Positions 45,593 through 58,424 are shown, counted from the stretch's first letter. The stretch: DNA of 64,000 nucleotides from Alphaproteobacteria bacterium (GCA_039980135.1 JBDXCV010000001.1:74914-138913), one strand, 5' to 3'. The notes: generated from the letters alone by a model not told the origin. A program made the numbers and translations.

Positions 45593-47925
45593 GTGTTGGC
45601 CTGGCCGGAAAGGGCGCGCCAGATTTTCTCGGGTGTCGCGGGCATGTCGAAATCGAGCGCGCAGCCGCGCGTGGCCAGCGCGTCGGCGATTGCATTCATC
45701 ACCGTGGGGAGGGCGCCGACAAGCCCGGCCTCGCCGATGCCCTTGACCCCGAGCGGGTTGGCCGGCGACGGGACGGGATGAAAGTCCGTGACCAGATTCG
45801 GAACATGCCGCGCACGTGGCAGAGGATAGTCCATCAGCGACCCGGTCAGCAGCTGGCCCGATTTGTCGTAGACGCTGTTTTCCAGCAGTGCCTGGCCGAT
45901 TCCCTGCACCACACCGCCATGCACCTGGCCGTGGACGATCATGGGGTTCACGACCGTGCCGACATCGTCGACCGCGACGTAGCTCTCAACCTCGATTTCG
46001 CCCGTACTCGGGTCGATCTCGACTTCGCAGATATGGCAGCCGTTCGGGAAATACTGGTCCTGCGCCCGAAATTCCTCCTCGCTGTCGAGGCTGTCGGGAA
46101 CGCCCTCGGGCAGGCTGTCCGGCGCGGCACGCAGCGTGCGCACGGTCTTGGCCAGCGCCAGCAATTCGATTTTCCTGTCAGTGCCCGTTACCCGGAACTC
46201 GCCATCCGCGAATTCGATATCCGCTGTGGCCGCCTCCAGAATATGCGCGGCGAGTTCGCGGCCTTTTTCGATCACGGCGTCGCAGGTGTTCGCGATGGCG
46301 GAGCCGGTCATGATCATGGAGCGCGATCCGATGGTCGCCAGGCCGATCGGCACATCGTCGCTGTCGCCCTGATGCAGGGTGATCGCATCGAATGGCAGGC
46401 CGAGGCGGTCGGCCACGACCTGCACGAAGCTGGTCTCATGTCCCTGGCCCTGGCTTTGGCTTGCGACCACAAGGTCGAGATTGTCCTCGCTGTTGAACCG
46501 GAGAATCGCGCCTTCGAACGGTACCGCGCCGACGCATTCCAGGCAGCTTGCCAGGCCGCGCCCGCGAACCTTGCCGGCGGCCTCGCTGGCCGCGCGGCGA
46601 GCCGGAAAACCGGCCCAGTCGGCCGCTATGAGCGCCTTGTCCAGGACGGCCTCGAACTCGCCGGAATCGTAGGTCCGGCCCGCCGGGGTCTCATAGGGCA
46701 TGGCCGTGGACGGAACATAGTTTATGCGCCGCAGTTCGAGCGCGTCGCGCCCGGTCTCGCGGGCGGCTTCGTCGATCAGCCGCTCGACGATCAGGGCCGC
46801 CTGCTCGCGGCCCGCGCCGCGGTACGGCCCGACCGACCCGGTGTGGGTGAACACAAGCCGCACCGTGATGTCCAGGACCGGTGTCCGGTACACAAGCGGC
46901 AGACCGTTCGTCATGTTGCGGACCGAAATGAAGGGGCCGTGGCCGGCGTAGTAGGCGCCCATTGCGTCGTCCACGGTGACCCGGATCGCCAGGAAGTTGC
47001 CGTCATCATCGAGCGCAAGCGCGGCGTCGATATCGGCGTCGCGTGCCTGGTTGTCCGACAGGAAATGCTCGGCGCGGCTGCCGGTCCATTTCACCGGGCG
47101 GCCGAGCACCTTGGCGGCGAACAGGATCGCGACGTCTTCCGGGTAGGGCTGTTCCTTGACGCCGAACCCGCCCCCCACATCATGGGTGCGGATGCGCAGC
47201 TTGTCGCCGGGGATACGGAGAATCTGCTCGCTCAGGACTTCATGCATGTAGTGCACGCCCTGGCTGGAACAGGTGAGGGTGTAGCGGTCGGCGGCGGCGT
47301 CATGCTCGGCGAGGCTCGTACGCACTTCCATAGGGTTCACGACGACCCGGTTGTTGCGCAGCTTCAGCCGTGTGACATGTGTCGCGTCGGCGAAGGCGCG
47401 GTCGGCTGCATCGCGGTCGCCATGGGTCCATTCCTGACAGACATTGCCGGGCGCGTCGGGCCACACGACGGGCGCGCCGGGGGTGCGCGCGTCGGTGATC
47501 TCGATGGCGGCGGGACGCTCTTCGACATCGACCGCGACGAGGTCGGCTGCGTCATCGGCCTGGGCGCGCGTTTCCGCGATCACCACGGCGACGGGTTCGC
47601 CGACATGGCGCACGACAGTATCGGCGAGACCCGGGCGCGGTGTGGGAGTGGTCACGAAACCGGGAAGCAGGGCACGCGGGAGTTGGCCATGCATGCCGGC
47701 CGCGACGAGGTCGGCGCCGGTAAAAATGCCGACAACGCCCGGTGCGTTGGCGGCGGCGGTGGTATCGATGCCGCGGATGCGGCCATGCGGTACCTGCGCA
47801 CGGACGAAGCTCGCATAGGCCTGTCCGGCATGATTGATATCGTCGGCAAACGTGCCGCGCCCGGTGAGGAACCGTGTGTCCTCGCGGCGTCGGACCGGCT
47901 GTGAGATTCCGAATTTTTCGACCAT
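45589..47925 (-). CDS. xanthine dehydrogenase/CO-dehydrogenase family molybdopterin-binding large subunit (CoxL/XdhB-like)
   Basis: N-terminus [19 protein letters not shown] and the Mo-cofactor binding regions. 778 aa. No small or medium subunit genes nearby. Confidence 0.85.
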
Positions 47926-47970
47926 CGTCTTCCCCCTTTTTTGGTGATGTTACACCAGTGCGGCGGATTG

Positions 47971-49787: not shown

Positions 49788-50819
49788 CTAGTCCCAGTCT
49801 TCGGCGTAGGCGAAGTTCCGCGCCGCATAGTCTGCGTGAAATTCTCCGAATGTGACCGGCGGGTACTTCGCCGGATGTTCGGAGTCCGTGCAACTGGGCA
49901 AACACTCCATCACGGCATCCACATTCGGATAGAGAAAGAAGATGTTCGAGTGGCGGTCGGTGTCGGATGCCGCGCGAACCCGGTGGGGAGTCGCCTGATA
50001 CACATCGTTGGACCAACGACTCAGGGTGCTGCCGGTGTTGAACAGCAGACCCTCGGGCACGACCGGTTGCGCGATCCATTCATCCGACGGTGTGAGAATT
50101 TCCAGGCCCGGATGGGTGGCCGGTGGAATAAGTGACAGGAACGACAGGTCCTTGTGACCGGGCAGGGAGATTTCTTCATTCCTGTCGGGGACCTGCGGGT
50201 AGTGGGCGATCCGGGTCATTGAACTTGAACGCTCGAAAAACGGCGTGAAAAACTCCGGCGCCATTCCCAGGGCGACGGACAGGACCGGCAGCAGTTTCCG
50301 GGCGAAGCTCTCGAATGTCTCATGGAATTCCATGAACGCGCGTCGCACGCCGGGCGCCGTCGCCTCTTCCGGCCATTTGTTGTGGCCGCGAAATCGACGG
50401 TTTTTTCCGAAATCCGGATCGTCGGGTGAGAGATCGAAGGTGAATTTATACGCCTCGCTGACCTGCGCCTTCTGTGCCATCGCGTGGGTCTCGAAGGTGT
50501 CTTTGTGCACGGATACGTTCGGCGGCATGTAGCCGCACTGGTGACGGTTCATCCGCACCTTCAGTTTCTCGTCCATCGGCAGGGCATGGAACCGGCGCGC
50601 GGCATCGAACGCCCGCCTCACGACTCCCCGATCGATCCTATGGTTGATCAGAAACAGGAAACCTATGCCCGTGCAGGCCTCGTGGAACGCTGCCGCGGCA
50701 AGCTCGACGGCGCCTGGATCGCGGGCGAGCACCGGCCCGATATCCACAATTGGTATCTCGTTGGAGTCGATGCCGGCGGTCGGTCGGGCGCTGGCGCTGC
50801 GGCGGGGCATCGTCGTCAT
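49788..50819 (-). CDS. 2-oxoglutarate/Fe(II)-dependent oxygenase (isopenicillin N synthase-like family)
   Basis: IPIVDIGPVL ... GFLFLINHRI N-terminal DIOX_N pattern, and HxD...H facial triad region HKDLSFLSL. 343 aa. Confidence 0.75.
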   Translation of the reverse strand: MTTMPRRSASARPTAGIDSNEIPIVDIGPVLARDPGAVELAAAAFHEACTGIGFLFLINHRIDRGVVRRAFDAARRFHALPMDEKLKVRMNRHQCGYMPPNVSVHKDTFETHAMAQKAQVSEAYKFTFDLSPDDPDFGKNRRFRGHNKWPEEATAPGVRRAFMEFHETFESFARKLLPVLSVALGMAPEFFTPFFERSSSMTRIAHYPQVPDRNEEISLPGHKDLSFLSLIPPATHPGLEILTPSDEWIAQPVVPEGLLFNTGSTLSRWSNDVYQATPHRVRAASDTDRHSNIFFLYPNVDAVMECLPSCTDSEHPAKYPPVTFGEFHADYAARNFAYAEDWD

Positions 50820-50822
50820 CCC

Positions 50823-51308
50823 CTACAGATGGGCCACGTTCAGCGACCGGCCCCACCTGTCCTCCAGATATTCGACCACGAGGCGGCGATGGCAATTGTG
50901 GGGCTTGTCCTCGCTGCACAGCAGGCACGCGCCTTCGAGCTCTTCCGGCTTGAACTGTTTCTCGATCTTCCGGGCGCGCATGATTTCGAGGAAGCGGGGT
51001 TCGAAGGCATCCCATCCGAGACCCTTCTTGCGATAGTCGGAGAACAGGGTCTCATCGGGGGCAAGTTCCGGCGCGTGCCGATACTCGATGCCACCGATGT
51101 GACCGAGAAAGTAGGCGAGGTCGGTGGCTTTGGCGAACCCGGCGAGCTGGGATGTATTCTGCAACCGGACATCGATCACCGAGCGCACGCCCGCATCGTT
51201 CAGGCGGCGGAAGAAATTTTCCGCACTGGTCTTCGTGAACCCGATAGTGAACGTCGCCATGCCTGGAAGTACTCCCGTTGCCGGCCGGTCTGCTTGGCCT
51301 GAACTCAA
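50823..51308 (-). CDS. DUF488 family protein
   Basis: FTIGFTKTSAENFFRRLNDAGVRSVIDVRL pattern of DUF488. 161 aa. 3-nt gap to the 2OG oxygenase gene. Confidence 0.6.
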   Translation of the reverse strand: MSSGQADRPATGVLPGMATFTIGFTKTSAENFFRRLNDAGVRSVIDVRLQNTSQLAGFAKATDLAYFLGHIGGIEYRHAPELAPDETLFSDYRKKGLGWDAFEPRFLEIMRARKIEKQFKPEELEGACLLCSEDKPHNCHRRLVVEYLEDRWGRSLNVAHL

Positions 51309-51402
51309 TTCGGCAAGTCCGCCAATTCTCTCACAAATACGTGACGCAGAGTGACTTTATGCGAAGCGGCGGATCATCATCTAATGCCCATGATCATCGT
51401 GC

Positions 51403-51463
51403 TTCTCCATTCAAATCACGCTTGGAGAAAACTGAACGGCGGCGGAGACGCCGCTGTTTTTTT
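51403..51463 (+). promoter_or_regulatory. structured 5' leader: hairpin TTCTCCA-N13-TGGAGAA followed by an intrinsic terminator (GCGGCG-GAGA-CGCCGC + T7)
   Basis: Seen directly, 50 to 110 nt upstream of the first DUF3179 gene start. The GNRA-looped GC stem is followed by TGTTTTTTT. TGATCAT elements flank it. Confidence 0.5.
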
Positions 51464-51510
51464 CCCCGCCATGATCATGCGAACTTTAAACTGAACACGA
51501 AAGCGACGGG

Positions 51511-52512
51511 ATGTTCGTCATGCCATTTCTCACCACTCAAAAATGGGGCCGCGTCGGTGCCATCATCGGCGCCGGCCTGCTGTTCCTCGCCGTGTCCGCC
51601 AGCGGTCAGGCCAACCCGGCGTTCTGGAAGCTTGAATGGCCACAAACGGATTTCTCGAAATCGAGCGTACCGTTTGACGAAATTTTCTCGGGCGGAGTCC
51701 CGAAGGACGGCATTCCCCCGATCTACGAACCGCGCTTTGCGTCCATCGCCGAGGTGGACCGGTTGTATACGGGAACCGAGCCGGTGATCACCGTGTCGAT
51801 CAATGGCGCGGCCCGCGCTTATCCGCTGGGTATCCTGATGACCCATGAGATCGTCAATGACGAACTCGGCGGCAAGCCGATTGCGGTCACCTTCTGTCCG
51901 CTGTGCAATTCGGCGGTTGTCTTCGAACGCGACGTCAACGGCCAGACCCTTACATTCGGTGTGTCCGGCAAGCTTCGCTTCTCCGATCTGGTGATGTGGG
52001 ATCACGAGACCAACAGCTGGTGGCAGCAGTTCATCGGCGAGGGGATCGTCGGTGAGATGACCGGCACCCAGCTGACCATGCTGCCCGTCCGTGTCGAGGC
52101 GTTCGACCTGTTCAAGGAGCGGTTCCCCGAGGGCGAGGTGCTTTTGAGCCCGCGCGGCGGTCCTGGTTTCAACCCCTATGCCGGTTACGACAGCGCGTCG
52201 CGTCCGTTCCTGTATCGCGGTAGCTTCCCCGAGGGTATCCGCCCGCTTGACTATGTGGTTGCCGTCGGCAGCGAAGCCTGGTCGATGGAGCTCCTCAGCA
52301 AGGAAAAGCGGGTCGAGACCGACAACCTGGTTATCACTTGGGAATCCGGCCAGAACTCGGCGATGGATGCCCGCAATATCTCCCATGGCCGAGACATCGG
52401 TAACGTGACAGTGCAGCGCAAGGAAGGCGACAAGCTCGTCGATGAAGTTCATGACGTGACCTTTGCGTTCTCGTTCCATGCGTTCAACCCGGACAGCACC
52501 ATCAACAAGTAA
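51511..52512 (+). CDS. DUF3179 family secreted protein, paralogue 1
   Basis: Signal peptide. Conserved blocks YPLGILMTHEIVNDE, TFCPLCNSAVVFER, SWWQQFIGEGIVGEMTG shared with the next two genes. Confidence 0.7.
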   Translation: MFVMPFLTTQKWGRVGAIIGAGLLFLAVSASGQANPAFWKLEWPQTDFSKSSVPFDEIFSGGVPKDGIPPIYEPRFASIAEVDRLYTGTEPVITVSINGAARAYPLGILMTHEIVNDELGGKPIAVTFCPLCNSAVVFERDVNGQTLTFGVSGKLRFSDLVMWDHETNSWWQQFIGEGIVGEMTGTQLTMLPVRVEAFDLFKERFPEGEVLLSPRGGPGFNPYAGYDSASRPFLYRGSFPEGIRPLDYVVAVGSEAWSMELLSKEKRVETDNLVITWESGQNSAMDARNISHGRDIGNVTVQRKEGDKLVDEVHDVTFAFSFHAFNPDSTINK

Positions 52513-52542
52513 CTCGACGGACAGAGACCCGGACGCGCAACC

Positions 52543-53595
52543 ATGATGCTGAAAAGATTCCTGAGCAGGCATCTCGGCGATGGAGAGGGCCGGTCCCGGT
52601 CGGGGCTGGCCTTCGTCGTTTTTGCAATCGCCGGGTTGTCGCTCTGGTCGGCGTTGCCGGGCGCCTTCGCGCAGGGTGTGTCGAAATGGCAGCGAGAGTT
52701 CCCGGCGACCAATTTCGCGAGCCGGATCGTCGAACTCGATGAAATCGACGATGACGGCAATACGCGGGATTCAATCCCGCCGGTGCGCGAGCCGAAATAT
52801 GTGCCCGCCTCCGAGGTCAGGGATATCGGCCCGCTCGAGCCCGTTTTGTCGGTCGGCATCAACGGTGATTTCCGTGCTTACCCGCTCCGCATCCTGCTGT
52901 GGCACGAGATCGTCAACGAGGTTATCGGGGATACACCGGTGCTGATCAGCTACTGCCCGCTTTGCAATTCGGGTGTGGTGTTCGACCGACGGTTGGGAGA
53001 GCGGCTGCTGGAGTTCGGCAACACCGGCCGGCTGCGCCATCGCGATATGGTCATGTATGACAAGGAGACCGAGAGCTGGTGGCAGCAATTTACCGGTGAA
53101 GCAATTATCGGCGACCTTTCGGGCAAACGCATGACGCCGATCCCGGCCCGGCTGGAATCCCTGGCGCGTTTCCGCGAACGCGCGCCGGACGGCCAGGTGC
53201 TGGTGCCCGAGGACGAGGGCGCGCGACCCTATGGCGCCTCGCCCTATGTGGGAATGGACACCCAGCGTATCCCGCGCGCGCTGCAGGCGGTTCACTTTCC
53301 TTATCCGCTACCGGACGGGGTGAGCCCGATGGACCGGGTCGTGGTCGTCGGCGATGAAGCCTGGACGCTTTCGGCACTGCGCGAGAGGTCGCCGGTCACG
53401 GACGATGACCTGGTGCTGAGCTGGCAGGCCGGTCAGAACTCCATCCATGACACGCAACTGATCTTCCGGGGCCGCGACGTCGGCAATGTCGTGGTTCAGC
53501 GGAAAACAGCCGACGGCGCCGAGGATGTGCCCTATGACGTTGTGTTCGCCTTTTCGTTCCGCGCCTTCAATCCGGATGGCACGCTTCACCGCTAG
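52543..53595 (+). CDS. DUF3179 family secreted protein, paralogue 2
   Basis: YPLRILLWHEIVNEV, SYCPLCNSGVVFDR, SWWQQFTGEAIIGDLSG. About 45 to 55% identical to its neighbours. Confidence 0.7.
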   Translation: MMLKRFLSRHLGDGEGRSRSGLAFVVFAIAGLSLWSALPGAFAQGVSKWQREFPATNFASRIVELDEIDDDGNTRDSIPPVREPKYVPASEVRDIGPLEPVLSVGINGDFRAYPLRILLWHEIVNEVIGDTPVLISYCPLCNSGVVFDRRLGERLLEFGNTGRLRHRDMVMYDKETESWWQQFTGEAIIGDLSGKRMTPIPARLESLARFRERAPDGQVLVPEDEGARPYGASPYVGMDTQRIPRALQAVHFPYPLPDGVSPMDRVVVVGDEAWTLSALRERSPVTDDDLVLSWQAGQNSIHDTQLIFRGRDVGNVVVQRKTADGAEDVPYDVVFAFSFRAFNPDGTLHR

Positions 53596-54577
53596 CGTGT
53601 TGGCGCTTGTGGCCGCGTTGCTGTCCGGTGCGCCGGAAGCGTCCGCCGATCCGGATCTGTGGAAGCGCGAGTTTCCGCTGACCGATTTCGCGCGCACCGA
53701 GGTGCCGCTCGAAGAGATCGAGGATGACGGCAACTACCGCGATACGATTTCTCCCATCGATAATCCCGTCTTTCAGCCGGTGGCCGCGCTGACGGCGATG
53801 GGACCGCTCGAGCCCGTACTCTCCCTCATCATCGACGGAGATGCGCGGGCCTATCCGCTGCGCATGCTGCTGTGGCATGAGATCGTCAACGATACGGTCG
53901 CCGGCGTGCCGGTGCTCGTCAGCTACTGTCCGTTGTGCAATTCCGGCGTCGTCTACGACCGACGGGTCGACGGGCAGACCGTCTCGTTCGGGAACACCGG
54001 CCGCATCCGCCACATGGACATGGTGATGTATGACCGCGCGACAGAGAGTTGGTGGCAGCAATTTACCGGCGAGGCGATCGTGGGATCACGGGCAGGCATG
54101 CTGTTGCGTACATTGCCGGCGCGGCTCGAATCTCTGGCGCGATTTCGCGAACGGGCACCGGACGGCAAGGTCATGATCCCGGCCGATGTGATGCGTCAGC
54201 CCTATGGCGAGACGCCTTATTTTCATATGGATACCCTGTGGGATACCCAATCGCGGAATATGGTGCGCGAGCGGTATCCTTCCGGCCTGCCTGACGGGAT
54301 ATCGCCTTTGACCCGGGTTGTCGCCGTCGGTGAGCGGGCATGGACGGTCGATCTCGTGCGCGCGCGTGGCCGGGTGGAGGCCGACGGCCTGACCCTGACC
54401 TGGCATCCCGGACAGAACTCGATCCATGATAGTCCGTGGATTCCGGCGGGGCGCGATGTGGGGAACATCATTGTCCAGCGAGCGGGCGCAAATGGCGCGT
54501 TGCGTGATGTCCCCCATGACGTGACGTTTGCGTTTGCGTTCCGGAATTTCCGGCCGGACGGTGAGATCGTGTTCTGA
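53576..54577 (+). CDS. DUF3179 family secreted protein, paralogue 3
   Basis: Start MARFTASVLALVAALLSGAPEASA overlaps the paralogue 2 stop by 20 nt. YPLRMLLWHEIVNDT, SYCPLCNSGVVYDR, SWWQQFTGEAIVGSRAG. Confidence 0.7.
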   Translation: MARFTASVLALVAALLSGAPEASADPDLWKREFPLTDFARTEVPLEEIEDDGNYRDTISPIDNPVFQPVAALTAMGPLEPVLSLIIDGDARAYPLRMLLWHEIVNDTVAGVPVLVSYCPLCNSGVVYDRRVDGQTVSFGNTGRIRHMDMVMYDRATESWWQQFTGEAIVGSRAGMLLRTLPARLESLARFRERAPDGKVMIPADVMRQPYGETPYFHMDTLWDTQSRNMVRERYPSGLPDGISPLTRVVAVGERAWTVDLVRARGRVEADGLTLTWHPGQNSIHDSPWIPAGRDVGNIIVQRAGANGALRDVPHDVTFAFAFRNFRPDGEIVF

Positions 54578-54649
54578 CGCCGCGGAATTCGCCGGAAGAT
54601 CGACGATTCCGGGCATTTCCGTTATAGTGCGCCTCTGGAGATACACAAG

Positions 54650-56788
54650 ATGCCACTCGACCAAACCGGACCGAATCAACCCGCCGATGGCACGGAGGCG
54701 GGGCACAAAGATGGCCATGAGTTTCGCGGCGAGGTGCAGGTTTTTCACTCGGCCTGCCCGCATGACTGCCCGAGCACTTGTGCGCTGGAGGTCGAGCGCC
54801 TGACGCCGCAGACGATCGGTCGGGTGAGGGGTGCAAGCGCCAACACCTACACGGCGGGTGTGATCTGCGCCAAGGTCGCGCGCTATGCAGAGCGGGTACA
54901 CCATCCCGACCGGCTCACCAAACCCTTGCGGCGTGTCGGCAAAAAGGGCGTCGGTCACGAAGCCTTCGAGGAAATTTCCTGGGACGACGCCCTCGACACC
55001 GTCGCCGCGGAACTGACCCGCGCTGCGGACAGGCACGGCTCCGAAACGGTCTGGCCGTTCTTCTATGCCGGCACAATGGGGCTGGTGCAGCGCGACGGGA
55101 TCGAACGCCTGCGCAACACGATGGGTTATTCGCGCCAGCATTCGACATTCTGCAATGCATTGTCGGATGCCGGCTGGATGGCCGGGGTCGGCGCGAAATG
55201 GGGTGTGGACGCGCGCGAGATGGCGGAATCGGACCTGATCGTCATCTGGGGATGCAACCCGGTGAGCACCCAGGTCAATGTGATGAGCCATGCCACCCGC
55301 GCGCGCAAGAATCGCGGCGCGAAGATTGTGGTCGTCGACCCCTATGTGACCGAGACCGCCAAGCAGGCCGACATTCATATCATGCCCAACCCGGGTACCG
55401 ACGGGGCGCTGGCATGCGCCGTCATGCATGTCCTGTTCCGCGACGGGCTGGCGGACCGGGCGTATCTGGCGAAGTACACGACAGACGCCGACGCGTTGGA
55501 GGCGCATCTGCAGGCGCGAACACCGGAATGGGCCTCGGCGATCACCGCGATCCCGGTCGAGGAGATCGAGGCGTTTGCGAAAATCTATGGCGCGAACAAG
55601 CGCAGCTATCTTCGGCTGGGGTTCGGATTCACGCGGTCGCGCAATGGTGCCGTACAGATGTTCTCGGCGAGTTGTCTGCCGGCCGTAACCGGTGCGTGGC
55701 AATATCCGGGCGGCGGTGCGCTCTATGCCCATGGCGGCATCTACAACATCGATAAAACCCTGATCGAGGGGCAGGACGCGCGCGACACGGGTGTGCGGCT
55801 GCTCGACCAGTCACGCATCGGTCCGATCCTGACCGGTGACCCGCGCGATCTTGGCGACGGCCCGCCGGTAACCGCGCTGTTCATCCAGAACACCAATCCG
55901 ATGAATGTGGCGCCCGACCTCGGAAAAGTGCGCGAGGGCTTCATGCGCGAGGACCTGTTCGTGTGTGTGCATGAGCAATTCATGACCGAGACCGCGCAGA
56001 TGGCCGATATCGTGCTGCCGGCGACGACATTCCTGGAACATGATGATTTCTACGTCGCAGGCGGGCACACCCATCTCCAGGTCACACGCGCGGTGATCGA
56101 ACCGGTGGGCGAGGCGCGCTCCAACCATGATGTGCTGTGTGCGCTGGCGGAGCGTCTGGGGGCAGCCCATCCGGGTTTCGACATGAATGCGTGGGAACTG
56201 ATGGACGAGACCCTGCGCCGATCCGGCTACGAGGGCGCGCAGGCCATATGGGAAGGGCACTGGGAAGATCGGGCGCGATCCTTCGAAGATTCCCACTTCA
56301 TCAACGGTTTCGGACATCCCGACGGCAAGTTCCACTTCGCGCCCGACTGGTCGAAGATCGGCGGCAACCATCAGGGCATGCCGCGCCTGCCGGACCATGA
56401 TGCGAACATCGACAACCGTGATGACGCGCACCCCTTCCGGCTGGTGACGGCGCCGTCGCGAAACTATCTGAACACAAGCTTCACCGAGACCGCGACGAGC
56501 CAGGCGCGGGAGGGCCGTCCCGAGGCGCAAATTCATCCCGATGTGTGTGTCGAACTCGGCCTGGAGGCCGGGGGACTCGTGCGGATCGGTAACGCACAAG
56601 GCACGGTCCTGGTCCATGTGCGTCCGACCGAGGGACTGCGCCGCGGCACGGTCATCGTCGAGAGCGTTTGGCCGAACCGGGCCTTCGTCGAGGGGATCGG
56701 CATCAATTTGTTGATCAGCGCGGATGCGGGCCGTCCGAACGGCGGCGCGGTCTTCCACGATACCGCCGTGTGGCTGCGTGGCGCATGA
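54650..56788 (+). CDS. molybdopterin (Mo-bisPGD) oxidoreductase family protein with N-terminal Fe-S motif C-x3-C-x3-C...C
   Basis: 712 aa. N-terminus HSACPHDCPSTCALEV...GVICAK, molybdopterin-binding regions, C-terminal MopB_CT beta-barrel. No Tat signal, so predicted cytoplasmic. Confidence 0.8.
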   Translation: MPLDQTGPNQPADGTEAGHKDGHEFRGEVQVFHSACPHDCPSTCALEVERLTPQTIGRVRGASANTYTAGVICAKVARYAERVHHPDRLTKPLRRVGKKGVGHEAFEEISWDDALDTVAAELTRAADRHGSETVWPFFYAGTMGLVQRDGIERLRNTMGYSRQHSTFCNALSDAGWMAGVGAKWGVDAREMAESDLIVIWGCNPVSTQVNVMSHATRARKNRGAKIVVVDPYVTETAKQADIHIMPNPGTDGALACAVMHVLFRDGLADRAYLAKYTTDADALEAHLQARTPEWASAITAIPVEEIEAFAKIYGANKRSYLRLGFGFTRSRNGAVQMFSASCLPAVTGAWQYPGGGALYAHGGIYNIDKTLIEGQDARDTGVRLLDQSRIGPILTGDPRDLGDGPPVTALFIQNTNPMNVAPDLGKVREGFMREDLFVCVHEQFMTETAQMADIVLPATTFLEHDDFYVAGGHTHLQVTRAVIEPVGEARSNHDVLCALAERLGAAHPGFDMNAWELMDETLRRSGYEGAQAIWEGHWEDRARSFEDSHFINGFGHPDGKFHFAPDWSKIGGNHQGMPRLPDHDANIDNRDDAHPFRLVTAPSRNYLNTSFTETATSQAREGRPEAQIHPDVCVELGLEAGGLVRIGNAQGTVLVHVRPTEGLRRGTVIVESVWPNRAFVEGIGINLLISADAGRPNGGAVFHDTAVWLRGA

Positions 56789-57698: not shown

Positions 57699-58424
57699 GT
57701 GACTGGAACCGACCGCGACCCGAAACTGCCCGCCGACGGCTCGTCACGCGCGGACATCGACGCGTTCCTGCAGAAGGTCGCGGCCACGCCGCCGACCAAG
57801 CCCGCCGGACGACCGGGGCGCCTGCTTTTTGCGATCGATGCCACGGCCAGCCGCGAACCCACCTGGGACATGGCCTGCCAGATCCAGTCGGAGATGTTCG
57901 CTTCGACCGACGATATCGGCGGGCTGGAGGTGCAACTCGCCTTTTATCGGGGCTTCGGCGAGATGAAGGTAACGGACTGGCTTGAATCACCCGACGATCT
58001 GGTGCGCCGCATGACGAAGGTACGCTGCCTCGCCGGCCGTACCCAGATACGCAAATTGCTGCGTCATACGCTCAAGGAGACCAAGCGCCAGAAGGTGGAT
58101 GCGCTGGTCTTTGTCGGCGATGTGGTGGAAGAGGACATCGATGAGCTGGGGCATTTTGCCGGCCAGCTCGGCCTCGTGGGAACGCCGGTGTTCATTTTTC
58201 ATGAAGGCGGGGAGCCAGTTTCGCGGCGCGCGTTCGAGCAGATTGCCAAATTGTCGGGGGGCGCATATTGCGGCTTCGACGCGGGCAGCGCGCAGCAGCT
58301 GCGTGAATTGCTCGCCGCCGTCGCGGTCTTCTCTGCCGGTGGCCGGCGCGCCCTCGAGGATCTGGGGAAGCGCAAGGGTGGCCGGGTACTCCAGATAGCC
58401 GACCAGATGCGCGGCGCGAAATAG
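57699..58424 (+). CDS. von Willebrand factor A (VWA) domain protein, cytoplasmic
   Basis: MIDAS motif LLFAIDATASREPT (DxSxS), with downstream T and D ligand positions. 241 aa. Confidence 0.6.
   Translation: MTGTDRDPKLPADGSSRADIDAFLQKVAATPPTKPAGRPGRLLFAIDATASREPTWDMACQIQSEMFASTDDIGGLEVQLAFYRGFGEMKVTDWLESPDDLVRRMTKVRCLAGRTQIRKLLRHTLKETKRQKVDALVFVGDVVEEDIDELGHFAGQLGLVGTPVFIFHEGGEPVSRRAFEQIAKLSGGAYCGFDAGSAQQLRELLAAVAVFSAGGRRALEDLGKRKGGRVLQIADQMRGAK

Follow-up and report, generated by a model that had tools for sequence, protein, structure and literature searches.

What does an intrinsic transcription terminator do when it stands directly in front of three tandem genes for secreted proteins of the DUF3179 family, and what might those proteins be for? 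The question is raised by positions 51309-54577 of a 64,000-nucleotide (nt) stretch of DNA from an Alphaproteobacteria bacterium (GCA_039980135.1, JBDXCV010000001.1:74914-138913), the whole of which is referred to here as the window. The three genes are called D1, D2 and D3, and a gene for a molybdenum oxidoreductase follows them. The best joint explanation, which we hold tentatively and with slightly less than even confidence, is a leader-attenuated operon of three old, Sec-exported DUF3179 paralogues with a thiol-redox function, in which termination is relieved by ribosome occlusion and to which the molybdenum gene does not belong. Loci from a scan of one genome per species carry labels of the type L001, and DUF3179 representative proteins carry labels of the type P0xxx.

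The leader RNA, about 74 nt long (51390-51463, plus strand), consists of an invariant 5′ tail, AUGAUCAUCGUGC, a hairpin termed H2 (51403-51429, plus strand; stem UUCUCCA/UGGAGAA), which is supported by minimum-free-energy folds and has a loop variable in both length and sequence, and a terminator found by terminator scan (51434-51463, plus strand), with an 11-bp G+C-rich stem (51434-51459), a GAGA loop and a U7 tract running to 51463. When the upstream regions of close relatives are aligned, four conserved blocks emerge: an element named block A, the sequence ATGATCATCGTGCTTCTCCA (from 51390, invariant), the hairpin with the terminator, and the ribosome-binding region of D1. A covariance model built from these close relatives also matches leaders ahead of the multi-copy arrays L012, L014 and L015, and a pattern scan of metagenome contigs that was blind to the downstream gene returned 84 stretches, 18 of which the covariance model confirms, every one of them directly upstream of a D1 orthologue. 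Altogether, 27 instances with 24 distinct sequences are known from marine alphaproteobacterial metagenome-assembled genomes (MAGs) and metagenomes, and all 27 lie directly upstream of a D1-type gene. Across the 24 distinct homologues, pairing in the terminator helix amounts to 97.6 %, four pairs have had both partners replaced in compensatory exchanges that span three clades, and the covariation score of the helix was reached by none of 500 shuffles; H2 is 79 % paired, with a conserved core of 5 bp and limited covariation. The flanking spacer is much less conserved than the tail, the arms of H2 and the terminator. The only gene neighbouring D1 upstream, a DUF488 gene, is divergent on the minus strand, so a plus-strand terminator cannot serve it. 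The structured leader with a canonical intrinsic terminator that the initial annotation had placed before the first gene is therefore real, conserved and specific to D1. In Rfam 15 it has no counterpart: in a search of 50800-55000 at E values up to 10, the leader matches nothing but the terminator-like sroD at E 7.6, and the whole window contains no family at the gathering score, nor any tRNA gene.

The origin of the leader can be traced to the gene that it precedes. When the first 81 nt of D1 genes are made into a nucleotide profile (nhmmer), its positions 1-75 match the leaders of L012 and L014, at E 0.005 each in 1.7 Mb, the next and unrelated match having an E value of 1.3, and the peptides MVIMPLLTTNAWSD and MSVMPLLTTDAWS, encoded at the leader start, mirror the D1 start, MFVMPLLTTQKWGR. 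These comparisons indicate that the leader arose by duplication, followed by divergence, of the beginning of the coding sequence of a D1-type gene that was itself leaderless in its ancestral state, and that the G+C-rich signal-peptide region and the Leu/Phe codons following it have been turned into the terminator stem and the U-tract. What is left of the coding sequence is a stub open reading frame (ORF) of 34 codons (51390-51494, plus strand), which runs from the putative +1 ATG through the terminator and would be a relic of the ancestral DUF3179 start.

Such an origin invites the reading that the leader is a mere scar of a partial gene duplication, with a terminator that is constitutive or inactive and regulates nothing. 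The homology to the D1 5′ end fits this, as does the frequency of recombination and decay in the array, and L007 manages without a terminator: at L007:953-1084, the hairpin and the terminator have been lost and block A and the ribosome-binding site retained, which makes it a natural control. A scar would, however, hardly explain why tail, H2 arms and terminator stand so far above the spacer in conservation, or why compensatory changes maintain the terminator in three clades, and we regard it as improbable.

If the leader does regulate, transcription has to begin upstream of the terminator, and the geometry of block A indicates where. Block A (51331-51357, plus strand), a presumed operator or promoter element of the form TCAC-N5-CGTGA-N7-TGACTT, contains both a TCAC/GTGA palindrome and a direct repeat of GTGAC at a period of 11 bp; its pattern, TCAC-N5-CGTGA-N7-TGAsTT, has a single occurrence in the window, where 0.03 would be expected, and precedes DUF3179 genes at 18 of the 79 loci of the genome collection. 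In 20 of 23 leaders it is spaced exactly 33 nt from the leader ATG, and the intervening 21 nt are not conserved. Within this fixed geometry, a −10-like hexamer, CATCTA (51378-51383, plus strand), lies 6 nt before the putative transcription start, and the other leaders have TATCTA, CATCTA, TATTTA, TATCTT or TAATAT at the same position, 6-7 nt before the ATG, with a purine always at +1. Transcription would thus putatively start at or beside ATG 51390. A point to set against this assignment is that the leader promoter has no good −35 hexamer at 17±1 nt; the promoter is therefore probably factor-dependent. Block A also occurs at L007, L011, L021, L025 and L026, all of which have no terminator leader, and at L021 and L026 the ATG of the DUF3179 gene itself is found at the corresponding place, with no Shine-Dalgarno sequence, so that these two genes look leaderless. 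Readings of block A and its spacing, made by eye, as a sigma-54, Pho-box, extracytoplasmic-function or MerR-type promoter were dropped, since the spacing fits none of them; the window contains no −24/−12 element. A sigma-54-dependent activator (AAA+ plus HTH_8, without a receiver domain) does lie directly upstream of two leader-bearing arrays, and of these only (L012:4582-5658 and L015:6631-7737). A search of the neighbourhood found no conserved regulator gene beside block A.

As the terminator separates the sole recognisable promoter from D1, read-through is needed for expression. In the model that we favour, block A and the −10-like hexamer would direct transcription to start at or next to ATG 51390, the first ~74 nt of RNA would fold into the hairpin and the strong terminator, early termination would be the default, and D1-D3 would be expressed solely from read-through transcripts. 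The relief step would be provided by a ribosome that loads on the 5′-terminal AUG and translates the stub ORF, covering the 5′ arm of the terminator and letting RNA polymerase go on. The stub ORF would lend itself to this: it begins with ATG in 24 of the 27 instances (GTG in L008 and L010, ACG in L006), its earliest stop never comes before codon 11 in any of the 27, and in 14 of them it stops 3-12 nt ahead of the terminator stem, with a cluster at 3-7 nt, the others reading through the terminator. There is no Shine-Dalgarno sequence, so translation would need to be leaderless. Both attenuation as the function of the leader and ribosome occlusion as the means of relief are inferences from this arrangement.

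Several observations weigh against ribosome occlusion. The stub peptide is conserved only as MIIVLLH; beyond codon 7 there is no conservation and the frame differs between clades. The start itself is replaced at +1 by ACG in L006 and by GUG in L008 and L010, and L015 has a 1-nt insertion. The first 20 nt of the leader are invariant at synonymous sites as well, which places the constraint at the level of RNA or DNA rather than of coding. Finally, pairing between upstream sequence and the 5′ arm of the terminator, as expected of an antiterminator, does not exceed that obtained with shuffled tails (p 0.09-0.77). A leader peptide as the selected product was rejected on account of the frame differences, the L015 insertion and the L006 start. 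The nascent fold, which engages the 5′ arm of the terminator in all 24 of 24 leaders, was likewise dropped as evidence for an antiterminator, as shuffled tails do equally well.

The nearest known relatives of the favoured arrangement are the trp and pyrBI leader-peptide attenuators of Escherichia coli, which share with it a short ORF in the 5′ leader followed by a hairpin and a terminator before the structural genes; by analogy with pyrBI, the terminator could be kept from forming by a ribosome that closely follows the polymerase. The leader described here differs in having no regulatory codon run for a sensed amino acid in the stub ORF, no conserved antiterminator hairpin and no conserved peptide, and in combining a leaderless 5′-terminal AUG start with an origin by duplication from the start of the regulated gene itself.

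The nucleotide-level constraint also suits a different attenuator, one that dispenses with translation and in which a protein, a small RNA or a metabolite bound to the 5′ tail and H2 sets the balance of termination and read-through. Besides the first 20 nt, which are invariant as nucleotides where the encoded peptide is not conserved, this reading can point to the H2 stem, retained while the loop varies in length and sequence, and to a consistently placed pairing of the tail with a segment just past the terminator. The segment, CAUGAUCAUG (51470-51479, plus strand), gives duplex energies better than those of shuffled sequences in most clades, and would form with the leader 5′ tail a long-range helix, P0. 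The partner lies 31-56 nt upstream of the D1 start, with p values of 0.0005-0.27 per clade, a failure in L014 and a combined value of about 1e-4 in a Fisher test done by hand; the pairing has weak to moderate support. Against a factor-dependent attenuator stand the lack of any Rfam match at E values up to 10, the lack of a conserved alternative structure, given that tail and terminator arm pair no better than in shuffled controls, and the small number of unpaired conserved positions, too few for a typical ligand pocket. We consider it rather unlikely. The ligand- or condition-dependent attenuation suggested in the initial annotation thus survives in part: attenuation is plausible from a conserved, D1-specific terminator leader, whereas no known riboswitch matches and no antiterminator is conserved. 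As to the same sequences in DNA, a pseudo-palindrome, CAyGAT-C-ATCGTG, covers the putative transcription start (51390-51402) and a second palindrome, ATGATCAT, lies just past the terminator (51470-51479); the two could be paired DNA operators instead of RNA partners.

A further possibility is that 51390-51463 is an independent gene for a trans-acting small RNA, with its own promoter, conserved 5′ seed and terminator, while D1 has a separate promoter further downstream. The element has the look of an Hfq-type small RNA, in that its conserved CU-rich 5′ end is unpaired and is followed by a hairpin, a linker rich in A and a terminator that ends in a U-tail, and the reverse complement of the seed resembles a ribosome-binding site plus AUG. 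The best non-self target of the tail in the window is of this kind: at 47897-47952 on the minus strand, the tail is complementary (−25.2 kcal/mol) to the Shine-Dalgarno sequence and AUG (ATG 47925) of a CoxL-like molybdenum hydroxylase gene, which lies downstream of a glutamine-synthetase-like gene. This pairing is kept in three closely related genomes only (the window, L001 and L004) and is missing in L005 and L008. Moreover, the gap between terminator and D1 is just 47 nt, with no conserved promoter seen in it, block A still directly serves D1 in L007, where hairpin and terminator are gone, and the element is never seen away from a D1 gene. A free-standing small RNA gene is, to our mind, less probable than a factor-dependent attenuator. 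Small RNAs can also derive from 5′ untranslated regions by premature termination, as do rnTrpL of Sinorhizobium and the riboswitch-derived SreA. The present leader resembles these in being a terminated leader of ~70-110 nt with a conserved single-stranded region that could act in trans, and differs in that the search of the window found no conserved trans target.

The genes served by the leader all belong to the same family. D1 (51511-52512, plus strand, with the public call starting at 51520), D2 (52543-53595, plus strand) and D3 (53576-54577, plus strand) match PF11376 with E values of 9.5e-76, 1.8e-71 and 3.5e-69 and scores of 255, 241 and 234 bits over profile positions 1-292, far above the gathering cut-off of 27 bits; no NCBIfam model covers any of the three. 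Pairwise identities are 46 % for D1/D2, 47 % for D1/D3 and 58 % for D2/D3. The blocks YPL..HEIVND, CPLCNS, SWWQQF and RF.ER.P are invariant across the three proteins, which also have all the family-wide residues of DUF3179, namely P105, H112, D164, W171, G181, N116/D117 and Q172/Q173. By inspection, their N-termini show a basic n-region, a hydrophobic core and AxA-type ends (SGQA|N, AFA|Q and ASA|D), and the AlphaFold 2 (AF2) model of D1 has an N-terminal helix of low confidence at residues 10-31; they look like Sec-type signal peptides, although predicted by eye. The earlier description of three secreted DUF3179 paralogues with shared motifs is upheld in these respects, and their identity is well above the 30 % below which kinship was to be doubted. 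The 20-nt overlap reported for the second and third genes depends on the choice of start: it exists with D3 starting at ATG 53576, which gives MARFTAS... and is conserved in L001, L002 and L004, and disappears in an independent public gene call on the same contig (GCA_039982435.1, JBDWYK010000163.1), which starts D1 at 51520 and D3 at the alternative GTG 53597. Antisense to D1, at 51475-52572 on the minus strand, runs an ORF of 365 amino acids (aa) that is longer than D1 itself, a GC-rich shadow ORF which a length-based gene caller takes in several relatives.

The paralogues are old. The one-genome-per-species scan yielded 79 DUF3179 loci, all from uncultured bacteria, and the closest relatives of the window locus are marine MAGs labelled 'Rhodospirillaceae' or Alphaproteobacteria. 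In a neighbour-joining tree, D1, D2 and D3 represent distinct, old lineages that have orthologues in further genomes (the D2 lineage, for example, recurs in L001, L005, L006, L012, L014 and L015), and the triple DUF3179 arrays of Chloroflexota formed independently. The orthologous position holds a single copy in L007, L008 and L009, two copies in L006 and L010, three in L001, L002, L004 and L005, and four to six in L012, L014 and L015. Losses can be seen in progress: D2 of L010 (L010:9008-9637) is a pseudogene with four stop codons, a single frameshifted D2/D3 hybrid occupies L003:9039-10081, and L009:3940-4424 retains just a 3′ stub of D3. Sequence and tree together indicate that the array is an old set of paralogues under continuing loss, pseudogenisation and paralogue recombination, with a copy number that ranges from one to six through turnover, and not the recent in-situ expansion that had been proposed.

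What, then, might the DUF3179 proteins do? The family comprises 9,463 clusters at 50 % identity (E ≤ 1e-3), and the literature on DUF3179/PF11376 amounts to selenoproteome tables, one genome table and one unrelated preprint. According to this literature, selenoprotein forms of DUF3179 have UxxC/T at the position of the CxxC motif, which in D1 is Cys129/Cys132; D1-D3 match the same profile over its full length and have CPLC there, with Cys instead of selenocysteine. Among 40 diverse members, P105, H112, D164, W171 and G181 are invariant and N116/D117 and Q172/Q173 near-invariant. Thioredoxin-fold fusions occur in different orders, with an N-terminal Redoxin (Redoxin/AhpC-TSA) in P0134 and P0264, a C-terminal Trx in P0198 and a DsbA-like domain in P0212, and recurrent neighbours in Alphaproteobacteria, Chloroflexota and Actinobacteria include a TlpA-like redoxin, DsbD, DUF1223, a sulfatase and an arylsulfotransferase. 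Two D1-like paralogues at second loci of the MAGs that also hold L005 and L002 (L011:8001-8999 and L013:8001-8831) lie beside DsbD, TlpA-like redoxin, DUF1223 and sulfatase genes, with block A present and the terminator leader absent. An unusual architecture is seen in P0122, which has five DUF3179 domains behind fn3 domains.

On account of the thioredoxin-fold fusions, the TlpA/DsbD/DUF1223 neighbours and the selenocysteine variants, DUF3179 proteins are probably extracytoplasmic thiol-redox (CxxC) proteins that act as clients or partners of TlpA/DsbD-type systems. They resemble the clients of the DsbD/CcdA to TlpA/ResA/CcmG pathways (ScoI, CcmH and PilB-type MsrAB-thioredoxin) in being exported, in their CxxC motif, in their Redoxin, Trx and DsbA-like fusions and in their DsbD, TlpA-like and DUF1223 neighbours, and differ from them in a fold unrelated to thioredoxin. 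This assignment has its own difficulties: CxxC is present in ~75 % of the 40 diverse members, with SxxC, CxxT, CxxS, SxxS and SxxT as variants, such that ~25 % miss one or both cysteines; fusions are found in only 4 of the 150 best representatives; and no TlpA or DsbD gene adjoins the array in the window. The joint claim that 70S translation of the 5′-terminal stub ORF decides terminator folding in a self-derived attenuator and that DUF3179 constitutes a new client family of the DsbD/TlpA pathway is one we think unlikely to hold in full.

The AF2 model of D1, as called for by the structure prediction and Cys-Cys check that the initial annotation had proposed, has a pLDDT (predicted local distance difference test) of 92, and the CPLC motif is invariant in D1-D3. 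Sequence and profile searches of the PDB with D1 and the family alignment return no match even at E 10, and Foldseek searches of the PDB with the D1 model return weak matches, the best being Rieske ferredoxins (E 0.085). The match to 2qpz (probability 0.91, TM score 0.58 on the target) goes together with a His112-x16-Cys129-x2-Cys132 spacing that resembles the CxH...CxxH of Rieske domains; D1 differs from these in the weak E value, in covering ~120 of 333 residues, in supplying three of four ligand positions and in having no sequence relationship to PDB entries.

This resemblance bears on the model put forward in the initial annotation, according to which the DUF3179 proteins are periplasmic binders or electron/metal shuttles that work with the molybdenum-bis(pyranopterin guanine dinucleotide) (Mo-bisPGD) oxidoreductase and are expressed with it from one leader-controlled transcript. 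The Mo-bisPGD gene is indeed present 72 nt after D3 (54650-56788, plus strand), encoding 712 aa with confirmed Fe4S4, molybdopterin and dinucleotide-binding domains (PF04879, PF00384, PF01568); the proteins of solved structure closest to it are formate dehydrogenases and dimethyl sulfoxide/trimethylamine N-oxide reductases, and it reaches no NCBIfam equivalog cut-off. A partnership would be in keeping with the shared strand, the 72-nt gap, the lack of a terminator between D3 and the Mo gene, the Rieske-like spacing, weak as that match is, and an adjacency that is retained in 12 loci, the more distant L020 and L068 among them. It is contradicted by location, by transcription and by distribution. 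The N-terminus of the Mo protein, MPLDQTGPNQPADG...FHSACPHDCPSTC, has no RR motif and no twin-arginine signal, so the enzyme is probably cytoplasmic, whereas the DUF3179 proteins are exported. The spacer after D3 contains, besides a strong GGAGA ribosome-binding site, a promoter-like TCGACG-17-TATAGT (54600-54628, plus strand; promoter scan) outside the DUF3179 unit, which is conserved across L001-L009 even at loci that have lost D2 and D3, and according to the public gene call the Mo gene ends 4 nt inside mipZ; the Mo gene would be transcribed from its own promoter jointly with mipZ. Only 12 of the 79 loci have a Mo gene after DUF3179, the other 67 lacking it, and the leader-bearing arrays L012, L014 and L015 have none, running straight into mipZ or a VWA-like gene. 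The partnership was rejected on its promoter-like element, the mipZ overlap and the 12/79 co-occurrence, and the model as a whole seems to us very improbable; the Mo enzyme is a neighbour, not a partner. Of the redox role that had been proposed, what remains is thiol-disulfide chemistry, suggested by the thioredoxin-fold fusions and neighbours and the selenocysteine variants and not tied to the Mo enzyme. Further downstream, at 57699-58424 of the window, lies a gene for a 241-aa protein with no Pfam match above cut-off, a weak VWA_2 match and a DxTxS-like motif, syntenic with mipZ and a J-domain membrane protein and, in relatives, often directly after DUF3179.

With the suspected link to the Mo enzyme discarded, the locus is of interest for its leader and for the family that it precedes. 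The leader, which is conserved, specific to one gene and without a counterpart in Rfam, is a new candidate for a regulatory RNA, and its evolutionary origin can be traced; the conversion of a gene's own 5′ coding end into a terminator-bearing leader would exemplify the birth of an attenuator and, possibly, regulation by leaderless translation. DUF3179 gains a concrete hypothesis, that of thiol-redox chemistry at a CxxC motif beside a site of invariant His, Asp and WWQQ residues, and if true, a client role in the periplasmic DsbD/TlpA reducing pathway would be the first functional assignment for this family of more than 9,000 clusters.

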